Below are positions 9,883 through 49,900 of a stretch of DNA of 64,000 nt, in pieces. Under the pieces are notes generated by a model. The model did not search any database, was not told the origin of the DNA, and was given only the letters and a program-made list of their open reading frames with translations. Where the stretch lies: assembly GCA_016183065.1 (NCBI GenBank), contig JACPFF010000017.1, forward strand, positions 57,550 to 121,549, written 5' to 3'. The position numbers and the translations under genes were made by a program. Each line of letters starts with the position of its first letter. The stretch's first letter is position 1. This DNA is from Deltaproteobacteria bacterium. Lineage in GTDB: Bacteria; UBA10199; GCA-002796325; JACPFF01.

Positions 9883-10116
9883 ATGCCGATGCGACCGAAC
9901 CGCTTACAATCCCAGTGGCAATATATCGAGCGGAAACTGTGTGAGCACTATCCGCGGGTCCCGCGGTCGCTCTGGCGGGCCACGGAGGGGGAACACGAAC
10001 GGATCGTCAGGGTGATCCGGGATACCTATGTGCCGGGCCGCTCCGCCATCACCGTGGAGGCCGAAATTCGCGATCGGCTCAACGAGTGGGTCGCCGAGAT
10101 TGAAGCCCATGTGTGA
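9883..10116 (+). CDS. Small hypothetical protein (77 aa), translationally coupled to downstream slt (ATGTGA overlap)
   Basis: AAGGGAG RBS about 6 nt upstream. Charged helical composition. Stop overlaps the slt start. Confidence 0.4.
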   Translation: MPMRPNRLQSQWQYIERKLCEHYPRVPRSLWRATEGEHERIVRVIRDTYVPGRSAITVEAEIRDRLNEWVAEIEAHV

Positions 10117-12055
10117 ACAATCCGTGCGCCGCTGGTTTTTGTCTCTGACCTTTGCGCTCTGCGCCTGTTCGCATGGCATGTCCCCAACGAAACACCGTGT
10201 ACAAAAAATTTCTGCCGAGGTCCTCGCGACGTTGCATCAACTCGATACGCGGTGGCGTGCCTATGCACCGCATCAACGGGCCTTTATTACCGGGCATACC
10301 CATCTCCTTCGCGGGGAGTATGCCTCGGCACTGCCGTATCTCGAAACAGCGCTCACGAGCTATCCGCAACTGAAAGAGGATATTCTCTACGATATCGCGC
10401 AGAGTGCGCTGCGCAGCGGGGCGCTGACGCGGGCGACATCCGCCGTGTCGGCATTGCTGGGCGAGTTTCCTGAAAGCCGCTGGAGCGCGCCCGCACGCGA
10501 TCTGCAGGTCGAGCTGGCCATGGCCCGTCGCGATTGGGATGGTGCCGCGGCACTGTTGCAGGCCGAACTGGCGATGGCCAGGGATCGCTGGCGGCAGCGC
10601 ACGCTGCGCGAGCAATTGGCGCACCTGGCCGTGGCCCGCGGTGATTCTTCGGCGGCGTCGCAGGCGTATTTTGCCCTCTATACGAGCGCTGAATATCCCG
10701 ACGAGGCACAGCGGGCGCGGGAGGGATTGACCCTGGGGGCGAAAGCGGGCGGTGAAGATCCTGTGCGCCACCTGGATACCGGGGCCCGGCAGGCGTTGGC
10801 GGAACGGTTTCTCCAGCGCGGCCTGGCCGCAGAGGCCGTCGAGGTCTTGCATCCGTTGCGACACGTGCCGTCCTTGTTACTTGCCCGGGCCTATTTTCGA
10901 GCCCGTCGATATGTCGAGGCGGCGGACCTCTATGAGACCTTGTGGAAGCGCGACGGGAGTCTCTCGACGCTGCAGCTCTATGCCACTGCGAGTGCGCGGG
11001 GAGAGCGCACCGACCGGGCCATTGCCTTGCAGCAGGAGATCGCCGAACAGTCGAGTGGCGCCACGCGCCTGCAGGCCCGTGCCAAAGAGGCCTTTCTCTT
11101 TTTAGATAGTGGCCGGTATCGTGAGGCGGCGGAAAAATATCGCCAGTGGGTGGAGAGCGCGCGGCCCGCCAGACTGTCGATCGACCAGCAGTGTGGCGCC
11201 TGGTGGGCGATCGCATGGAGCGAGTATCGGCAGCAGCACTGGCAGGCCGCGCTCGAGGCATTTGATCATCTCACGGCGATTGCGACGGCGCGGGACCGCC
11301 AGTGGCATGCGCGCGTGGCCTATTGGCGGGGGCGCGTACTGGATGCCGCGGGGCAACGAGGGCCCGCGCGGACTGCATGGAAGGCGCTCGCACGGACGGC
11401 GGCCGGGACCTATTATGGCACCCTGGCCGCGGCCCGTGTGAAAGGACGCAAAGGCGTCGAGACCCTTTTCCGGCACCAGTCCCCTGCGGTGCACGATATG
11501 GGCCCGATGGAGGTCATGGGAGATACCACGTCTGCACAGGTTCGCGAGCTCGATGCCTTGGGGCTGTGGGATGCGGCCATCGAAGCGTTTGATCACCAGG
11601 TGCGTCCGGTCCAGTTTCGTCCGCATCATCAGCAGGCCATTGCTCGGCTCGGCGCACTGTGGGGGATCGATCCGGCACTCGTGGAACGGCTCATTTGGCA
11701 GGAGTCGGCGAATCGTCCGTTGGTCGTGTCACCGGCAGGGGCGATCGGGTTGATGCAGTTGATCCCCACGACAGCCTACGCGATGGCCCGTGAATTGCGG
11801 CAAGAGCCCTTCCGCGTCGAGGCCCTCTTCCGTCCGCTCCCGAATCTGCAATTGGGGATGTGGTATCTCCGCACACTCCTCACGCGGTATGATGGAGCCT
11901 TGCCGTATGTCCTGGCCAGTTACAACGCCGGGGAGGCGGCCGTCGATCGCTGGCGCCGCACTCGCACCGGTCACGATCTGGAAGAGTTTATCGAGACCAT
12001 TCCGTATCGCGAGACGCGGCAGTATGTCATGCGCATCCTGCAGCAATATTGGTAA
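10109..12055 (+). CDS. slt: Soluble lytic murein transglycosylase (Slt family) with N-terminal superhelical/TPR-like domain, lipoprotein signal
   Basis: SLT-domain motifs GLMQLIPTTA and YNAGEAAVDRW. Lipobox LTFALCAC from the ATG at 10109. Confidence 0.8.
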   Translation: MCEQSVRRWFLSLTFALCACSHGMSPTKHRVQKISAEVLATLHQLDTRWRAYAPHQRAFITGHTHLLRGEYASALPYLETALTSYPQLKEDILYDIAQSALRSGALTRATSAVSALLGEFPESRWSAPARDLQVELAMARRDWDGAAALLQAELAMARDRWRQRTLREQLAHLAVARGDSSAASQAYFALYTSAEYPDEAQRAREGLTLGAKAGGEDPVRHLDTGARQALAERFLQRGLAAEAVEVLHPLRHVPSLLLARAYFRARRYVEAADLYETLWKRDGSLSTLQLYATASARGERTDRAIALQQEIAEQSSGATRLQARAKEAFLFLDSGRYREAAEKYRQWVESARPARLSIDQQCGAWWAIAWSEYRQQHWQAALEAFDHLTAIATARDRQWHARVAYWRGRVLDAAGQRGPARTAWKALARTAAGTYYGTLAAARVKGRKGVETLFRHQSPAVHDMGPMEVMGDTTSAQVRELDALGLWDAAIEAFDHQVRPVQFRPHHQQAIARLGALWGIDPALVERLIWQESANRPLVVSPAGAIGLMQLIPTTAYAMARELRQEPFRVEALFRPLPNLQLGMWYLRTLLTRYDGALPYVLASYNAGEAAVDRWRRTRTGHDLEEFIETIPYRETRQYVMRILQQYW

Positions 12056-12116: not shown

Positions 12117-12185
12117 ACCCGGCTTGACTCTCTCAGAGAGTTCTTTTATGGTGCGTCAACTTTTCCTGAGTACATGCAATCTACA

Positions 12186-12250
12186 GTACCATAAGTATTT
12201 CTAACGTTTAATGAGCACGTTTGTGCTCGTTAAACGTTGAAATACTATAG
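12186..12250. repeat. AT-rich 65-nt imperfect palindrome (long hairpin), copy 1 of 2
   Basis: AGTATTTCTAACGTTTAATGAGCAC-gttt-GTGCTCGTTAAACGTTGAAATACT. About 90% identical to the reverse complement of 32519-32583. Confidence 0.7.
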
Positions 12251-12276: not shown

Positions 12277-12897
12277 ATGCCGTTTTTGCCCAAATCGTTC
12301 GATTTTTATTCCGGCTTTGAACAGCTCAGCACGAAGATGACCGAGGCGGCAGAAGAGTTGATCGTCCTCTTGCGCAACGGGACGGTCAATGGCGAGCAGC
12401 ATGTGAAACAGCTCAAGACCATTGAAAATGAGGCGGACCACATTGCCCACGAGGCCCTGGAACGGCTCAACAAGACCTTCATCACCCCGCTCGATCGCGA
12501 GGATATCCACGGTCTGGTCACAGCGCTCGACGATGTGGTCGATCTGATCTTTGCCTGCGGGGGGCGTTTCCTGATCTATCGGCCAAATTATCTCCATCCA
12601 GCCGTGATCCCCATGGCGGAATTCATCCGCAATGCGACGAAGGAGATCTATAATGCCATCCACGGAATGCGCAATACGAGTCATCGGCGTCAGGTCTTGA
12701 CGCATTGCATTGAGGTGAATCGCATTGAAAATAGCGCGGACGACCAGGTGCGCGAGGGATTGAAAGATCTGTTTGCCAATGAAAAGGACCCGATCGAATT
12801 GATCAAGATCAAGGAAGTCCTCGAAATGCTCGAAGAGACGAACGACGCGTGTGAAGATGTTGCCCATCGCATTGAGGGGATTGTGCTGAAGAATTAA
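12277..12897 (+). CDS. DUF47 family protein (PhoU-like phosphate-transport-regulator-related, TIGR00153-like)
   Basis: GGGAGG RBS 7 nt before ATG 12277. Characteristic DUF47 N-terminus PFLPKSFDFYSGFEQL. Confidence 0.65.
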   Translation: MPFLPKSFDFYSGFEQLSTKMTEAAEELIVLLRNGTVNGEQHVKQLKTIENEADHIAHEALERLNKTFITPLDREDIHGLVTALDDVVDLIFACGGRFLIYRPNYLHPAVIPMAEFIRNATKEIYNAIHGMRNTSHRRQVLTHCIEVNRIENSADDQVREGLKDLFANEKDPIELIKIKEVLEMLEETNDACEDVAHRIEGIVLKN

Positions 12898-14067: not shown

Positions 14068-14081
14068 CGTCTCTTCCCCGA

Positions 14082-14195
14082 CTATTGGAGGGGCTCACGT
14101 CGCCCCCTCCAGCGGCAAAGCCGCTGGAGCCTCCCCTTCAACGCCGCGATGCGGCTGGGTCGTGGGGCCCCACTCCCTTCCGATTGTCGCTATCG
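14082..14195. repeat. GC-rich multi-hairpin palindromic element, copy A (REP/RPE/MITE-like family)
   Basis: CTATTGGAGGGGCTCACGTCGCCCCCTCC / CTCCAGCGG-CAAAG-CCGCTGGAG / GTGGGGCCCCAC. Shares 5' end and hairpin architecture with copies at 19343 and 40954. Confidence 0.7.
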
Positions 14196-19265: not shown

Positions 19266-19835
19266 ATGACGGTCGGGCAGATGACTCCGACCGCCCGCAT
19301 CGATAAGCCGTGGGGTTGGGAGCTCATTGGTCCGATTGTGCGCCCTGCTATTGGAGGGGCTCACGTCGCCCCCCCAACGGGCAAAGCCCGTTGGGTCCCC
19401 CCCTCTCGCGCGCGGTGCGCGCTGGGGGACTTCCTCGTCCACCCGCTTCGCGGGTGCCCGGACTCGGTCGCCGCCACAGACATGGCGACCGATGCTGGAT
19501 ACACCTATAAAATGTTGCTCATTGTCGGGCCGCTTTCGCGTCAAGTCCACACGCCGTATCACGACGCGACCGGGACGGCACACGGCGCAAAGGTCGAGAC
19601 GCAGATGTGCCTCGGGCCCGATCCCTATCTGATCCGGACCGCGGATGCGCTCTATCGGATCTGGCCCGGCGAGGCCTTTCACATCCCGGAGGGGCTATGG
19701 CATCAACCGACGGTGCTCCCTGGCGCGGCATCGTTTGTCGAAGAGGTCTCGACCCCCAATATCGGCCCTGGCAGCACCACGCGAGACCCGGACGGCGACC
19801 CGTGGGCGACCCAGCGGAGTCCGGGTGATCAATAG
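19266..19835 (+). CDS. Cupin-domain protein (ManC-type small cupin, KPWGWELI motif) carrying an in-frame insertion of palindromic element copy B
   Basis: GGAGGGA RBS before ATG 19266. KPWGWELIG is followed directly by about 50 codons translated from the repeat element, then the cupin sequence resumes at GYTYKMLLIVGP ... FHIPEGLWHQ. Confidence 0.5.
   Translation: MTVGQMTPTARIDKPWGWELIGPIVRPAIGGAHVAPPTGKARWVPPSRARCALGDFLVHPLRGCPDSVAATDMATDAGYTYKMLLIVGPLSRQVHTPYHDATGTAHGAKVETQMCLGPDPYLIRTADALYRIWPGEAFHIPEGLWHQPTVLPGAASFVEEVSTPNIGPGSTTRDPDGDPWATQRSPGDQ
19343..19492. mobile_element. GC-rich multi-hairpin palindromic element, copy B, inserted in-frame (about 150 nt) within the cupin gene
   Basis: CTATTGGAGGGGCTCACGTCGCCCCCCC / CCCAACGGG-CAAAG-CCCGTTGGG / GCGCGC-ggt-GCGCGC / CACCCGC-ttc-GCGGGTG hairpins. 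Confidence 0.65.
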
Positions 19836-31760: not shown

Positions 31761-32315
31761 TTACCTGTTGTACCGCTTCTTGATGGGGACGGGCATGGTC
31801 TCCCGCAGACAGGCGTCCTTGCAAATGGGACAGTCCTCCGGTCCTTCGCAGGTGGGCCGCCCGGCCCAGAACGCGCGCAAGACCTGCTCGGCACACGGGT
31901 CATTAGAGGTCATGAACCGGAGAAAGTCGAGCAGACGCGCCCCGGTTTCGCTGCTGATCAGGTGTTCGATTTTGCACGTGTCGACCTCGGCCTGGTGCGG
32001 TTTCACGAGGAGGATCTCTTCAAGGAACCGGCGGAGGACGACCTTTTTCCCGACGATCTCTCCGGCGATCTGCTCTCCCTTTTCGGTCAGCCGGACAAAT
32101 TTGTTCGGATCTTCCTTGACGAAATTCTTGTCGATCAAGGTACGCAGGCCGATGGAGGCGCTGGACCTTGCGATGTTCAGTTTTTTGGCGACATCGGTAA
32201 TCCGTGCATAGCCCTGTTCCATGATCAAATCACGGACCGCAATGAGGTAATGGGCCATGCTGTGCGTCAGTTCGTTGGCCTCGAACTCTTTCCAGACTTC
32301 CAAATCCGGCGTCAT
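31761..32315 (-). CDS. DtxR/MntR-family metal-dependent transcriptional regulator with Cys-rich C-terminal tail
   Basis: LTHSMAHYL...ARITDVAKKLNIARSSASIGLRTL HTH and dimerisation/metal-site region. C-terminal C-x6-C-x2-C-x3-C. Confidence 0.75.
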   Translation of the reverse strand: MTPDLEVWKEFEANELTHSMAHYLIAVRDLIMEQGYARITDVAKKLNIARSSASIGLRTLIDKNFVKEDPNKFVRLTEKGEQIAGEIVGKKVVLRRFLEEILLVKPHQAEVDTCKIEHLISSETGARLLDFLRFMTSNDPCAEQVLRAFWAGRPTCEGPEDCPICKDACLRETMPVPIKKRYNR

Positions 32316-32518
32316 GTGTATGACCTATAATGTTGCCCTTGGACCTCGTCAACAAAGATCGATCTGGGTCACTTGCGGGCGCTGTCGATACGGTTTCTCC
32401 GGTGCAGGATGGTTGGCATTCGGGGTGCTCATGGGGGGCGGTGTCTGGAGCGGAAGTTGCGCTCCAGGTTGGCGCTCATTGCGTTGCCGGTCGTTTTTCC
32501 TCTCATTGATTTTCTTGA

Positions 32519-32583
32519 TATAGTATTTCAACGTTTCATGAGTACAAATGTGCTCATGAAACGTTAGAAATACTTATGGTACC
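32519..32583. repeat. AT-rich 65-nt imperfect palindrome, copy 2 (inverted orientation relative to copy 1), in the divergent promoter region of the DtxR-family regulator
   Basis: AGTATTTCAACGTTTCATGAGTAC-aaat-GTGCTCATGAAACGTTAGAAATACT, with flanks matching the reverse complement of 12186-12250. Confidence 0.7.
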
Positions 32584-32900
32584 GTAAGACGCATGTACTC
32601 AGGAAAAATTAACGCACCATAATATACGCCCGCATTGGTTGTCGCCTTCCTCATAAATAGTATCGGCATTTTTTGGAAAAAGTTGTCCAGTGAGGCCTCT
32701 GTCAGGCATTCTCAAGACCCGTTGAAATGTACCACGCCCTGCAAAAAAATCAGGTGAATTCCGACCCATTTTTTGCTGTTTCTGATTTGTAACTTATCGA
32801 AAATATTAAATGTTTCATTCCGTATCGTCTGGAGCCTTTCTTGCAGTACCTTAATCACGGACGCTGCAGTTCTTTTGATCGTCACGAAAGGGGTGTTGCC

Positions 32901-39252: not shown

Positions 39253-40902
39253 TTATTCCGCCAGACCGAAAATGCGCCGCCGCAGCAGGCTCAAGGGGAT
39301 CGATCCCGCGCGGAGGAAACGGTTATGGAAGTCCTTCTCGGAAAATTCCGCGCCATCGCGCCGCTGGAGATCCTCTTTAAGCCTCATGATGAGATGTTTG
39401 CCGATCAGGTAGCTCAGCTGGTAGCCGGGAGAGTAGGTGTAGCGGTTCACTTCAGCCTCTGCCCCTTCACGACTCAGGTGCGCATGCTCGATCAACATGG
39501 CCACACCCTGGTCATACGTCATGCTCCCCTGCGAGAGCTCGACGTCCACGATGATGCGTGTGGCGCGCCAGACCAGATCGCTGACCATGACAAACCGGCC
39601 TGCGGGTGTGTTGTGGAATCCGTGCGTCTTCATCAATTCTTCGCAATAGTGGGCCCATCCCTCGACGTACTCCGCCGGCTTCCCTCCCACAAATGGCGCA
39701 CTCCGGAGAAACGATACCTCCCGGTTCGCGGTGGCGAGTTGCAGGTGGTGACCGGGATAGGCCTCGTGGATCGCGGTATTGTAGATACTCGTGTGGTTGA
39801 GATGCTTGCGCAACAGGGCAGGATTGTTTGATGGCGTGACCACGTATGTGCTGGTCTGTATGCGATGGCATTTCGCCGGTGGAAAGATCGCGGCAAACGG
39901 GACAAACGTACGGAGAAACTTCGGGGTTTCGACAATATGTAATTGCTCCTCCGGAGGGACGTCCATCAGTTGGAGGGTCTGGATAAACCTTCGCGCTTCC
40001 TCGCATGCATGACGGGTCGTTGCCAGGGCATCGGCAAATGTCCGTGGGGCGTCAGCTTCGATCATGGCCTTTGCCGCGGCAATATCTGGCGTGCCAACGA
40101 GCTGGATGGCAAGACGGCGCTGCTCATCCTGGTAACGCGCGAGAGAGGTCTTCCCCAACTCCAATATGTCATTGACCGTCAGGTCCAGGGCGCGCAATCG
40201 GATCAGCTCGGCAAAATGTTCCGGCCCGAGGACCCACGACTCTTTTTCATCGACGGTAATTCCGGTCAGCCAGATGCCATATTCGGCGATCAGCGCCTTC
40301 ACCTGTATCACCGCCTTTTGCAGACGGGTCATCAACCTTGCTGAGATGTGGCCTTCTGCGGCGGCAGTGATGGCGTCAAAAAAGTGGGGCATGCTCTGCG
40401 CGGTCTGGATGGCCAGATCGCGCCATCGTCGTGGAGGTGTGGCCATACGGGAGCGGAATTGGTGCAGATACTGGGGGAAGGCCTCCAGGCGGCCTGCAAG
40501 ATTGGCAAAGCGTTCTTCGGCCTTGCCATGTTCATAGAGGAGCGTCAGGAAAATGATCTGACCGATCCCGCTGACAGCGTCGGGGTTGCGCTCCCACGTG
40601 CGCAGTTCGCGATAATAAAATGCCTGCTGGGCAAAATAATGTTCAAAGAGCGAGCGATCGAATTGTTGATCTTCCGTGAGCTGGTCTGCCGGGGTCTGGC
40701 GGAGTTCGGTCAGCCACCGGTGGAGGAATTGAAACTCCGCCTCGATCCCCTCGCGATCGGCGCGGGAGAGCCGGTGATCGAAGGCGTGGTAGCCGGAAAA
40801 CGTTGCAAATTCTGGAATTAATTCAAATAGTTGCTTGAGTTTTTTCCATTGGATCAGGTCGTGAGCGTCATGGTACGGAGGTTCAGGGGGGAGAATGGAC
40901 AT
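39253..40902 (-). CDS. DUF885-family protein
   Basis: HEAYPGHHLQ motif and overall length and organisation typical of DUF885. Confidence 0.6.
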   Translation of the reverse strand: MSILPPEPPYHDAHDLIQWKKLKQLFELIPEFATFSGYHAFDHRLSRADREGIEAEFQFLHRWLTELRQTPADQLTEDQQFDRSLFEHYFAQQAFYYRELRTWERNPDAVSGIGQIIFLTLLYEHGKAEERFANLAGRLEAFPQYLHQFRSRMATPPRRWRDLAIQTAQSMPHFFDAITAAAEGHISARLMTRLQKAVIQVKALIAEYGIWLTGITVDEKESWVLGPEHFAELIRLRALDLTVNDILELGKTSLARYQDEQRRLAIQLVGTPDIAAAKAMIEADAPRTFADALATTRHACEEARRFIQTLQLMDVPPEEQLHIVETPKFLRTFVPFAAIFPPAKCHRIQTSTYVVTPSNNPALLRKHLNHTSIYNTAIHEAYPGHHLQLATANREVSFLRSAPFVGGKPAEYVEGWAHYCEELMKTHGFHNTPAGRFVMVSDLVWRATRIIVDVELSQGSMTYDQGVAMLIEHAHLSREGAEAEVNRYTYSPGYQLSYLIGKHLIMRLKEDLQRRDGAEFSEKDFHNRFLRAGSIPLSLLRRRIFGLAE

Positions 40903-40953
40903 TCCGAAAATTATAGCAAAGAATGGGCAACTTGTAGAGCAATTTTGCCGATA

Positions 40954-41094
40954 CTATTACAGGGGCTCGCGTCGCCCCCTCCACCGGCAAAGCCGGTGGA
41001 GCCTCCCCCTCACGCTCGCCGTGCTCGCTGGATCGCTTCCCACGGGCGACGCGAGCTGCTGAGGACCACGCGTTTGCCCGTGGGAAGCTATGCA
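40954..41094. repeat. GC-rich multi-hairpin palindromic element, copy C, in divergent intergenic region
   Basis: CTATTACAGGGGCTCGCGTCGCCCCCTCC / CTCCACCGG-CAAAG-CCGGTGGAG / TTCCCACGGGC...GCCCGTGGGAA. Confidence 0.7.
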
Positions 41095-46964: not shown

Positions 46965-49900
46965 ATGAAAATGTCGATGGTGCAGCGTGCGGTGTTGGTG
47001 GGCGTTCTCGCAGGGATCGGTCTCGGCGTGAGTACATCGGTCAAGGCCGTAAGTTTTGGAGAACTCTTTCAGCAAGTCGCGGGTCAACTTACAAGCACGG
47101 CCGGTGATCTCCAGCCGGGCATTCCTGATGGGGCCGTGTTGCCCCAGGCCGAATTCCCACTGGAGAATTCCGGCGGGACGGTCATGCCGGAGAGTGGTGT
47201 GCCGTCCGGGCAAGACGTGAAGACCCCCACCATCGACGTGCCGTCTGAAGAGGACCCACACCCTGCCGACGCGTCGCAGCCAGGACGTGCCGGGGATGCG
47301 CGCAGAGAGACCGAGGAGACACCGATCGGCCTTGCCATCCCGTGGGTGCCGAAGTGGCTCCCACTACTGCAGCAAGAGATTCCATTGCCCGGCGGCACTC
47401 CCGCAAGAGACACGCTCTCTGTTGACACACCGAGACCGGTTGACACAACGAGGCCGACAGAGATTGTCGCGCCGATTGAAACACGGACACCAGCCGACAT
47501 CATAGTACCGATCGAGGTGCGAAACCCGGCGAGGATTGGCGCGCCGATTAAGGTGCAAACCCCGGCGAGGATTGAGACGCCGATCGAGGTGCGAAACCCG
47601 GCGAGGATTGAGACGCCGCCTGAGATGCGCTCTCCGACACAGTCGCCGGCACCAATCGAAACGCGAATTCCGACAGAGAGTATGGTGCCTATCGAAATGC
47701 GTGCCCCAGCGCAGCCAGAGGGACCGATTGAGACGCGAGGTCCGACGGAGGTTGCAGCGCCCATCGAGACAAGAACGCCAAGAGAGGCTGTTGTGCCGAT
47801 GCCTCCTCGCAAGATGTTGCCTCAAGATATCAGCCCCGATGCGTTTGTACCCCGGGAGCCTGTTGTGCGCGAGCCTCTCCCCGAGACTGCCGACGTCAAT
47901 GAGCCTGTGCCGATGCGGCAGACACTCCCCATTACGCCGGTGATTCCGCGACAGGCATCACGTATCGAATTGCCGAGGAGTCCCTCCAGCCGCCCGTTGC
48001 CGCCTCGAACCGGTTCAACGAGTTCCAAGAGAGATGGTGATGTGACAGCGGGTACCGATGAAGAGAATCCACAGCCAGGCTGCGAAGAGGATACGATTGC
48101 GTCGTGCAGCGTCATCTACGGATCGACCAGCTGTGCCGGGAAAAAAATATGCAAGAATGGAGGATGGAGCGTCTGCATTGCGCCACCACCGGTCGCGGAA
48201 GCCTGTGACGGTGTGGATAACGATTGTGATGGTGCGAGCGATGAGGGATTCAATGTCGGCGAGGTCTGCACCAACAGTGGAAATATGCAGTGCTACGCGC
48301 AGGGCATCCTCCAGTGTGCGCCGAATGGCGAGGTCACCTGCAATACCGCACCTGTGATGGATGGAACGCGATGCGAGGACGGGGATATCTGTACGACAGA
48401 CGACACGTGCCAAAACGGGGTCTGCCAGCCAGGGGTTATCAGCAGCAGTCCGTCGTGTGAAGAGAAGAAGGGTCCCCTCTGTGCTCCCGGAACAACGGTT
48501 GCGTGTAAAACAGGTTTGCCGGGTCTCTGCGCGGAAGGGTCACAGATGTGTCGTGAAGATGGTCTCGGATGGACAGCATGTGAGCCGAACAGCATGGGGA
48601 AGACCTTTTATATGGATGCCGATGGAGATACGTATGGCGATCCCATCAGCACGATTGTGGCCTGTGAGAAGCCCCAGGGATACGTCGAGGAGAATACGGA
48701 CTGTAATGACGGCAATCCGTTGATGCGTCCCGGCGCGAAAGAAGTGTGCGATACGATCGACAACAATTGCGTGGGTGGTGCGGATGAACCGTTCAAGAAT
48801 GCCGTCGGCCAATATGTCGGTCCGGACGCCATGGCGATCTGTTTCGCGGGTCCGGCCAAGTCCGCCTGTGAGGTCCAGGGAGACTATCAATGTGCGCCAG
48901 ATGGCCTCTCGACGATCTGTACCGCGAAGCCAAATCTTGCCGCCGCGAGCGTCGAGATCTGTGGCAATGCCTTTGACGAAGACTGCGACGGCATGGATGC
49001 TGCAAAGAACGCGTGCGGGGGGTGCAGTGAACTCGATCACGCGATCAGCGAACTGTGCGGTTGCAATGCGGCGGGCACGTATCAGTGCCAGAGTGATGGA
49101 ACGCTAGCGTGTATCGGCGGAGAGCCGCGGGAGGAAGTGTGCGACGGGAAAGACAACAACTGTAATGGGGCCATTGATGAGGGGATTGCGGTCATCATTG
49201 ATTATCATTCGCCAATGGAAACGGCCGGAATCGGTCCGTGTCAGGTGGGAAAGACGGAGTGCCTGAATGGCCAGCTGATCACCACGGCGCCTCTCCTCCC
49301 GACCGGCGAAGTCTGCGACACGATCGACAACAATTGCAATGGCGAAGTGGATGAAGGCCTCTTGCAGGCGTGTTATGATGGTCCGCAAGAAACCGTGGGT
49401 GTCGGTGCATGCCGTGCGGGAAAGCGGTTGTGCATTGCCGGAAACTTTGCCCAGGCCGGGTGTGATGCGCAGGTCCTCCCCGGTGAGGAGTTGTGCGACG
49501 ATCAGGTCGATAACGATTGTGATGGCGCCACCGATGAGGGATGCGGCGGGGAGAACACCGGGGATGAGACACGGCCCGAAGAGGAGACCGCGGAAGAAGC
49601 CGGGGAAGAACCCCACGGAGATGAAACCGAGACAGAAGCCTCACTGCATCACAAGGGGGCCACAGCGCCCGACGAGCGGGAACCCGCGCCAGCGCCCGTT
49701 CCTCAGCCGATGGCGCCGGCACAATGCGCGAGCGATATTTTTGACTGCAAGGGGCATGGACTCTATTTTGCGGAGGCTCGGGGATATTTGGGGAGTTTCC
49801 GGTCAGGCGATGATTCCGCACTCCTCTTTTTCACGCAGGACATCGCCGGGTCGCATGCCTATGCCGTTCCCGTCAAGGCCATGGTCGAAGGGACGGTCAC

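Follow-up and report, generated by a model that had tools for sequence, protein, structure and literature searches.

Two A+T-rich hairpins lie in opposite orientations in a 64-kb window (the whole stretch of 64,000 nucleotides analysed here) from an uncultured 'Deltaproteobacteria bacterium', one ahead of a DUF47 gene and the other near a gene for a DtxR-family regulator. The question is whether such a pair is a regulatory signal, an RNA or a repeat that has moved. The first-pass annotation of this DNA had set three candidates side by side, an extended operator for the DtxR-like repressor, a small structured RNA and a further class of miniature inverted-repeat element (MITE). We conclude, with a probability of roughly 85%, that the two hairpin copies are insertions of a non-autonomous mobile element of the MITE type.

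An unbiased repeat search over the whole window returned a single long inverted pair, 12146-12249 and 32519-32622 (104 nt, 88% complementary). The repeat unit consists of 99 nt with a TA on each side (Table 1); its GC content is 35-36% in a window of 58.2% GC, and the two copies of the 99-nt element are 88-89% identical. The pair had been described as a hairpin element in two inverted copies, about 90% identical and A+T-rich relative to the rest of the genome, and this description holds: over the 65-nt span recognised at that time the aligned copies differ at 6 of 65 positions (~91% identity). The boundaries had to be corrected to 99 nt plus TA, as the similarity runs about 40 nt further left and the 65-nt span is the right-hand two-thirds only. 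A 16-nt core pattern and a gapped outer-stem pattern both match both copies, with 0.00-0.07 matches expected for each in dinucleotide-preserving shuffles of the window. A third match in the window (40798-40813, three mismatches) lies in coding-like sequence, was missed by the profile and was rejected.

Table 1. Features of the two element copies and of their neighbourhoods in the window.
Feature	Position	Strand	Basis
SLT-domain gene, upstream of copy 1	10028-12055		Pfam
Promoter-like TTGACT-N17-TATGGT; -10 = TA duplication plus first 4 nt of the element	12124..12152	+	Promoter scan
TA target-site duplication left of copy 1	12147..12148	+	TA flanks in all four copies
MITE copy 1, element proper, 99 nt, 36% GC	12149..12247	+	Repeat pair, alignments, boundaries
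Left terminal inverted repeat, copy 1 (TGGTGCGTCAACTTTTCCTGAGTACATGC...)	12149..12180	+	Matches reverse complement of right end, 20/34
Long hairpin, copy 1: 24-25 bp, one bulged T, 4-nt loop	12194..12246	+	Fold
TA target-site duplication right of copy 1	12248..12249	+	Boundary alignment
DUF47/PhoU_div gene, 27 nt downstream of copy 1	12277..12897	+	Pfam PF01865, E 1.2e-23
DtxR-family regulator gene, then lnt	31761..32315	-	Pfam PF02742 and PF01325
Small conserved ORF ahead of the DtxR gene; copy 2 breaks it after codon 5	32349..32635	-	Restored ORF aligns with L028, L018
TA target-site duplication, copy 2 right end (element orientation)	32519..32520	-	Boundary alignment, ORF restoration
MITE copy 2, element proper, 99 nt, 35% GC	32521..32619	-	Repeat pair, boundaries
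Long hairpin, copy 2	32522..32574	-	Fold, pattern match
TA target-site duplication, copy 2 left end (element orientation)	32620..32621	-	Boundary alignment, ORF restoration

Four copies of the element were seen in all, two in the window and single ones on two short metagenome contigs, L009 and L011. Three of them measure 99 nt and the fourth, on L011, 107 nt; the element has no coding capacity and is too short for a transposase. TA borders both sides in all four. The terminal inverted repeats are about 30 nt long and imperfect (TGGTGCGTCAAC... and ...GTTGAAATACTA), the left end matching the reverse complement of the right end at 22 of 34 positions in copy 2, which has the tabulated 20 of 34 as its counterpart in copy 1, and at 20-22 of 34-36 positions across the four copies. 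A motif, TA(A/T)GTATTTC(T)AACGTTT, occurs three times per element: degenerate at the left end, as an internal direct copy, and inverted at the right end. In copy 1 the left terminal inverted repeat reproduces the left arm of the long hairpin in direct orientation and degenerate form, and the right terminal inverted repeat also serves as the right arm; it is the pairing of this right repeat with an internal copy of the motif, inverted relative to it, that gives rise to the long hairpin.

The predicted fold of either copy has a short hairpin (TTATGGTGC...GTACCATAA) and then a stem of 24-25 bp with one bulged T, in agreement with the imperfect stem of roughly 25 bp noticed at first pass. Folding energies lie between -38 and -41 kcal/mol, with z-scores of -7.3 to -8.6 against shuffles (-41.4 kcal/mol and z -8.6 for the 104-nt stretch 12147-12250), and the opposite strand folds nearly as well, as expected because the element is a DNA palindrome. 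The differences between the two copies had been taken to be compensated across the stem; this is true of one pair, which is changed on both sides (A-U to C-G), but two further pairs are changed on one side only. Across the four copies, 3 of the 30 predicted pairs are changed on both sides and most are constant; no variation is seen in the outer stem, and the invariant core comprises 40 nt (ACCATAAGTATTTCTAACGTTT...AAACGTTGAAAT). The contrast between degenerate terminal repeats and an almost invariant internal hairpin could point to an extra constraint, for instance a host factor or a role at the RNA level.

Direct evidence of insertion comes first from the hisB locus. L011, whose element ends 13 nt before the hisB start codon, reads ...CATCACGT-TA-(107 nt)-TA-AATAGAC, whereas L030 and L031 read ...CATCAAGT-TA-AATAGG, and the flanks are homologous on both sides (the hisB of L030/L031 is 98% identical to that of L011 in protein and ~91% in DNA). 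L011 and L030/L031 are thus a classical filled/empty pair with a TA target-site duplication. The slot between the methyltransferase gene and hisB also carries different toxin-antitoxin pairs in these close relatives (L011 4573-5144 versus L030 1115-1674): in L011 a same-strand pair, which we take to be a RelE-like toxin with its antitoxin, and in L030/L031 HicA/HicB on the opposite strand, of which L011 retains about 40 nt of the hicB start region.

In the window, copy 2 gives a second line of evidence. When 32521-32619 and one TA are removed, a 61-aa ORF is restored, MRAYIIKKINERK...QIDLC; with copy 2 in place the original ATG frame reads MRAYIMVR* and stops after 8 codons. Matching small ORFs lie directly upstream of the DtxR gene in L028 (MNAYIINNINKLR...ITIDL) and in L018 (...PYIISEIERLR...VEIDL), and in spite of a low protein identity (30-34%) they agree in position, in length and at both ends. 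This ORF of about 60 aa just before DtxR-lnt is unannotated and has the pattern M.AYII..I...PL..P..H...IDL (L028 1440-1634, L018 9756-9938, and the tabulated interval in the window); Pfam returned nothing for the small-ORF homologues.

Presence and absence of the element vary at orthologous loci. We took such loci via neighbouring proteins, for DtxR (L018-L029, 66-84% protein identity), DUF47 (L034-L037) and hisB (L030-L033), and a profile of the four copies found the element in none of them, with 348 kb of loci scanned in all; syntenic DtxR, DUF47 and hisB loci of relatives are thus without it. L035 is fully syntenic with the window around copy 1 (S8 peptidase, 76-aa ORF, SLT, DUF47 and a convergent HD gene), and its element-free slt-DUF47 spacer measures 79 nt as against 221 nt in the window. 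No 20-kb inversion between the two copies was seen, the order and orientation from DUF47 to DtxR being collinear with JBFOMP010000011.1, which lacks both copies. Because of the filled/empty TA duplication, the restoration of the ORF, and the terminal inverted repeats with TA flanks in four of four copies, we favor the MITE reading, and the further MITE class that had been offered as the last of three options is borne out. The element is a new family of a well-known kind, the TA-duplicating MITE, in an uncultured lineage.

Relatives of the element were sought with a gapped pattern on the invariant outer stem, a scan in which exact matches are needed and which a diverged partner could escape. 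Among the GTDB representatives (185,579 species) this pattern gave one match only (L007), non-palindromic and attributable to chance, and in IMG/VR none. The metagenome collection gave ten matches, eight of them non-palindromic chance matches and two true relatives, L009 (43% GC) and L011 (45% GC), whose copies are 75-81% identical to those of the window. The L009 element ends about 24 nt before a tRNA gene. Plasmid and phage collections gave no meaningful blastn match, and a vaguely similar dyad in L014 (nhmmer E 0.01) was set aside, being in unrelated context and without a transposase. The four copies, 75-89% identical, therefore come from unrelated contexts (DUF47, small ORF/DtxR, hisB and a tRNA gene) and from at least three organisms of 58%, 45% and 43% GC. 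All four are oriented towards a downstream gene whose start lies 13-204 nt away, which with n = 4 is not significant.

In four runs, Logan short-read assemblies of this organism begin right within the element, at window positions 12195 and 32545. Such breaks fit the behaviour of a multi-copy repeat in de Bruijn assemblies and hint at more copies. One Logan contig also ends inside the other, GC-rich repeat family of the window. This 77-nt family has three direct copies (14077-14153, 19343-19419 and 40949-41025; 75-79% identical, with internal hairpins), the contig end falling in the first of them (14077-14153), and is presumably what the earlier reader counted as the first element of the window. 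Tandem 36-nt repeats and repeated cysteine-rich modules (GA(C/T)AACAA(C/T)TG...GATGA(A/G)) occupy 47508-47772 and 48213-49542, apparently within one large gene.

These results change the annotation of both loci: the hairpins are scars of mobile-repeat insertion, not the operator of a metal regulator or an RNA gene. A small conserved ORF that precedes DtxR-lnt is split by copy 2, and copy 1 lies exactly on a -10-like hexamer before the DUF47 gene and may alter DUF47 expression. Being common to uncultured 'Deltaproteobacteria bacterium' lineages of very different GC, the family is a small marker of horizontal exchange. It is also a cause of assembly breaks in these metagenomes, and otherwise an ordinary bacterial repeat.

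A stronger hypothesis would make the element more than a passive MITE: it would insert or persist preferentially at the TA of a -10 and rebuild that -10 (TA+TGGT), serving as a portable promoter-and-leader module whose role in RNA or protein binding is conserved. At copy 1 the reconstructed empty site, TTGACT-N17-TAGCGG, aligns with TTGACG-N18-TAGGCG of the element-free L035 spacer, and at the hisB site TTGTCA-N18-TAAATA of the empty state becomes TTGTCA-N18-TATGGT in the filled one. We infer a promoter function for the TTGACT-N17-TATGGT junction of copy 1. In two of the four insertions a 5/6 match to TTGACA precedes the TA by 17-18 nt, while only 1.8-2.1% of all TAs in the same sequences have such a match 16-18 nt upstream (binomial ~0.002, in a test chosen post hoc). 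This placing also speaks for the MITE reading. For copy 2 a '-10 target' (GCGACA-N18-TA) was considered and dropped, as the site is within the small ORF, and a promoter within the long hairpin was likewise rejected, its candidate -35 lying in the variable loop and not being conserved among copies. If the hypothesis were true, an almost invariant 53-nt hairpin would stand at the 5' end of the downstream transcript, and it would be understandable that four of four copies face genes and that the hairpin core does not vary among genomes of 43-58% GC. We consider it unlikely.

Two observations on the DUF47 locus may be added here. A terminator-like hairpin (GACTCTC-TCA-GAGAGTT with a T-run, 12126-12142) shares sequence with the -35-like TTGACT that precedes copy 1, and this stretch may therefore double as the slt terminator and as part of the DUF47 promoter. 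In addition, the DUF47 gene is followed by a gene for a PHO4-family phosphate transporter in L034 (61-1678); in L035 and in the window it is a single gene, facing a convergent HD-domain gene.

Another reading would be a structured RNA, whether as a small RNA gene or as a 5' leader that acts in cis on the genes downstream. The very stable fold (z -7 to -9), the four copies that each face a nearby gene start, and the hairpin core that is invariant across organisms, with its few doubly changed pairs, are all what such an RNA would lead one to expect. However, Rfam at the gathering threshold found in the window only a tRNA located elsewhere, and at relaxed thresholds only miRNA-hairpin matches, which are spurious and far below threshold (13-21 bits against cut-offs of 55-101). 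Moreover, relatives lack the element at orthologous loci, the genes that follow the copies are unrelated in function, the two strands differ little in folding, as a DNA palindrome would, and the T-run of an intrinsic terminator is absent after the hairpin on either strand. The conservation of the stem is explained equally well by two inverted repeats that bind a transposase. The small structured RNA proposed at first pass is thus left without positive evidence, having no Rfam family and no conservation at orthologous sites, and we regard it as improbable; it is possible that a structured RNA arises as a by-product of incidental transcription.

A mobile element of another class is more improbable still. 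A REP- or PATE-type hairpin moved by a Y1 transposase (IS200/IS605 or RAYT), or an integron attC site, could account for the two hairpins, the bulged base in the long stem and the AAC/GTT motifs in the arms, and toxin-antitoxin cassettes do adjoin the L011 copy. However, elements of the IS200/IS605 type are not known to duplicate their target or to carry terminal inverted repeats, and here a TA duplication and inverted termini are present. The attC reading conflicts with these two features as well; moreover, the copies are surrounded by housekeeping genes in conserved synteny, with no cassette array, and the arms, on our reading of them, are not an exact fit to the RYYYAAC/GTTRRRY cores.

With regard to the DtxR locus, the gene order DtxR-lnt is the same in relatives, and every DtxR orthologue retains, as judged from the sequence, a promoter-like TTGAC(G/A)-N17-TAnnnn no more than about 45 nt from its start codon. 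Copy 2 lies inside the small ORF, 204 nt upstream of the DtxR ATG and about 165 nt further upstream than this promoter-like sequence. The first-pass annotation was right to place a DtxR-family gene near copy 2 and the SLT and DUF47 genes around copy 1, as Pfam confirms, but copy 2 is not in the DtxR core promoter, and a headline that put one copy in the promoter of the regulator was misleading. That the dyad is an extended operator of the adjacent DtxR-family repressor, with autoregulation and DUF47 as a regulon member, is scarcely credible: a long palindrome does precede both the regulator gene and another gene, with one and the same relative orientation, but it is absent at all DtxR orthologues examined and from the syntenic slt-DUF47 spacer of L035, interrupts an ORF well upstream of the conserved promoter-like sequence, precedes hisB and a tRNA gene elsewhere, bears the TA duplication and the empty site that mark an insertion, and at 53 bp is far longer than DtxR/IdeR/MntR operators, which are roughly 19 bp. 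The element resembles those operators in being palindromic, A+T-rich and upstream of a DtxR-family gene, and differs from them not only in length but also in that it does not accompany the regulator gene in relatives, bears a target duplication and occurs at unrelated genes. Upstream of two DtxR orthologues we noticed perfect 17-bp palindromes that share GGTACC/TACCGCC, at L028 ~1335-1380 and L024 ~9945-9980 (TTTAGGTACCGCCTACC-TCTAA-GGTAGGCGGTACCTAAA and AAATACCGCCAGGTACC/TGGTACCTGGCGGTATTT), that of L024 being just upstream of the -35; these could be a real operator or another repeat class.

For the MITE insertions that we favor, the following course of events is proposed. A transposase of the IS630/Tc1-mariner type would bind the repeated motif and cut and paste the element in trans. 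Such a source is suggested because the characterised TA-duplicating elements use it, and by this analogy the TA duplication, taken by itself, makes an IS630-type mechanism somewhat more probable than another. No transposase was called in any fetched locus, and the GTDB representatives, JGI/ENA metagenome contigs, IMG/VR, plasmids and phages yielded neither an autonomous element nor a transposase with matching ends, the collection scans being limited to exact outer-stem matches. Copy 1 went into the TA of the -10-like hexamer before the DUF47 gene and so created the hybrid junction, and copy 2 went into codon 5-6 of the small ORF upstream of DtxR-lnt. Should neighbouring genes be affected, this would be a by-product of insertion, be it through a hybrid promoter, a structured leader of about 100 nt, or the disruption and restart of the small ORF. 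DUF47 may be transcribed from the putative hybrid promoter through such a leader, and translation of the 3' part of the small ORF may restart at a TTG (32531) within the element.

Bacterial MITEs have been described as non-coding sequences of less than 200 bp that are A+T-rich, carry terminal inverted repeats and 5'-TA-3' ends, and produce a target-site duplication, a description that the present element fits (PMC2229807). The nearest analogue is RUP of Streptococcus pneumoniae, a non-coding, intergenic element of 107 bp with terminal inverted repeats that inserts at TA, is present in 108 copies per genome and has IS630-Spn1, with matching ends, as its proposed partner (PMC2229807). The two are nearly equal in size and alike in being non-coding and in their terminal inverted repeats and TA target; they differ in that the searched collections gave no sequence similarity and in that the host here is an uncultured 'Deltaproteobacteria bacterium' in which no partner was found. 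Correia elements also duplicate TA. These elements of Neisseria (CREE, NEMIS) are A+T-rich MITEs often found just upstream of genes, their ends can create sigma-70-type promoters, and their transcript is a long hairpin cut by RNase III (PMC10969869, PMC2649163). The TATGGT/TATAGT junction hexamers of the present element recall the Correia end promoters, although Correia elements are ~100-155 bp long, contain an IHF site and carry 26-bp repeats unrelated in sequence. Experiments have demonstrated RNase III cleavage and promoter activity for Correia; for our element both are putative. Finally, IS630/Tc1-mariner elements, of which ISY100 is an example, use a TA target and have terminal inverted repeats bound by the transposase (PMC2170065). 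TA target and terminal inverted repeats are common to them and to the element described here, for which they are the expected source of transposase. Unlike them, our element has no transposase gene of its own, and its three motifs, two direct and one inverted, make up a layout distinct from the simple two-repeat one.
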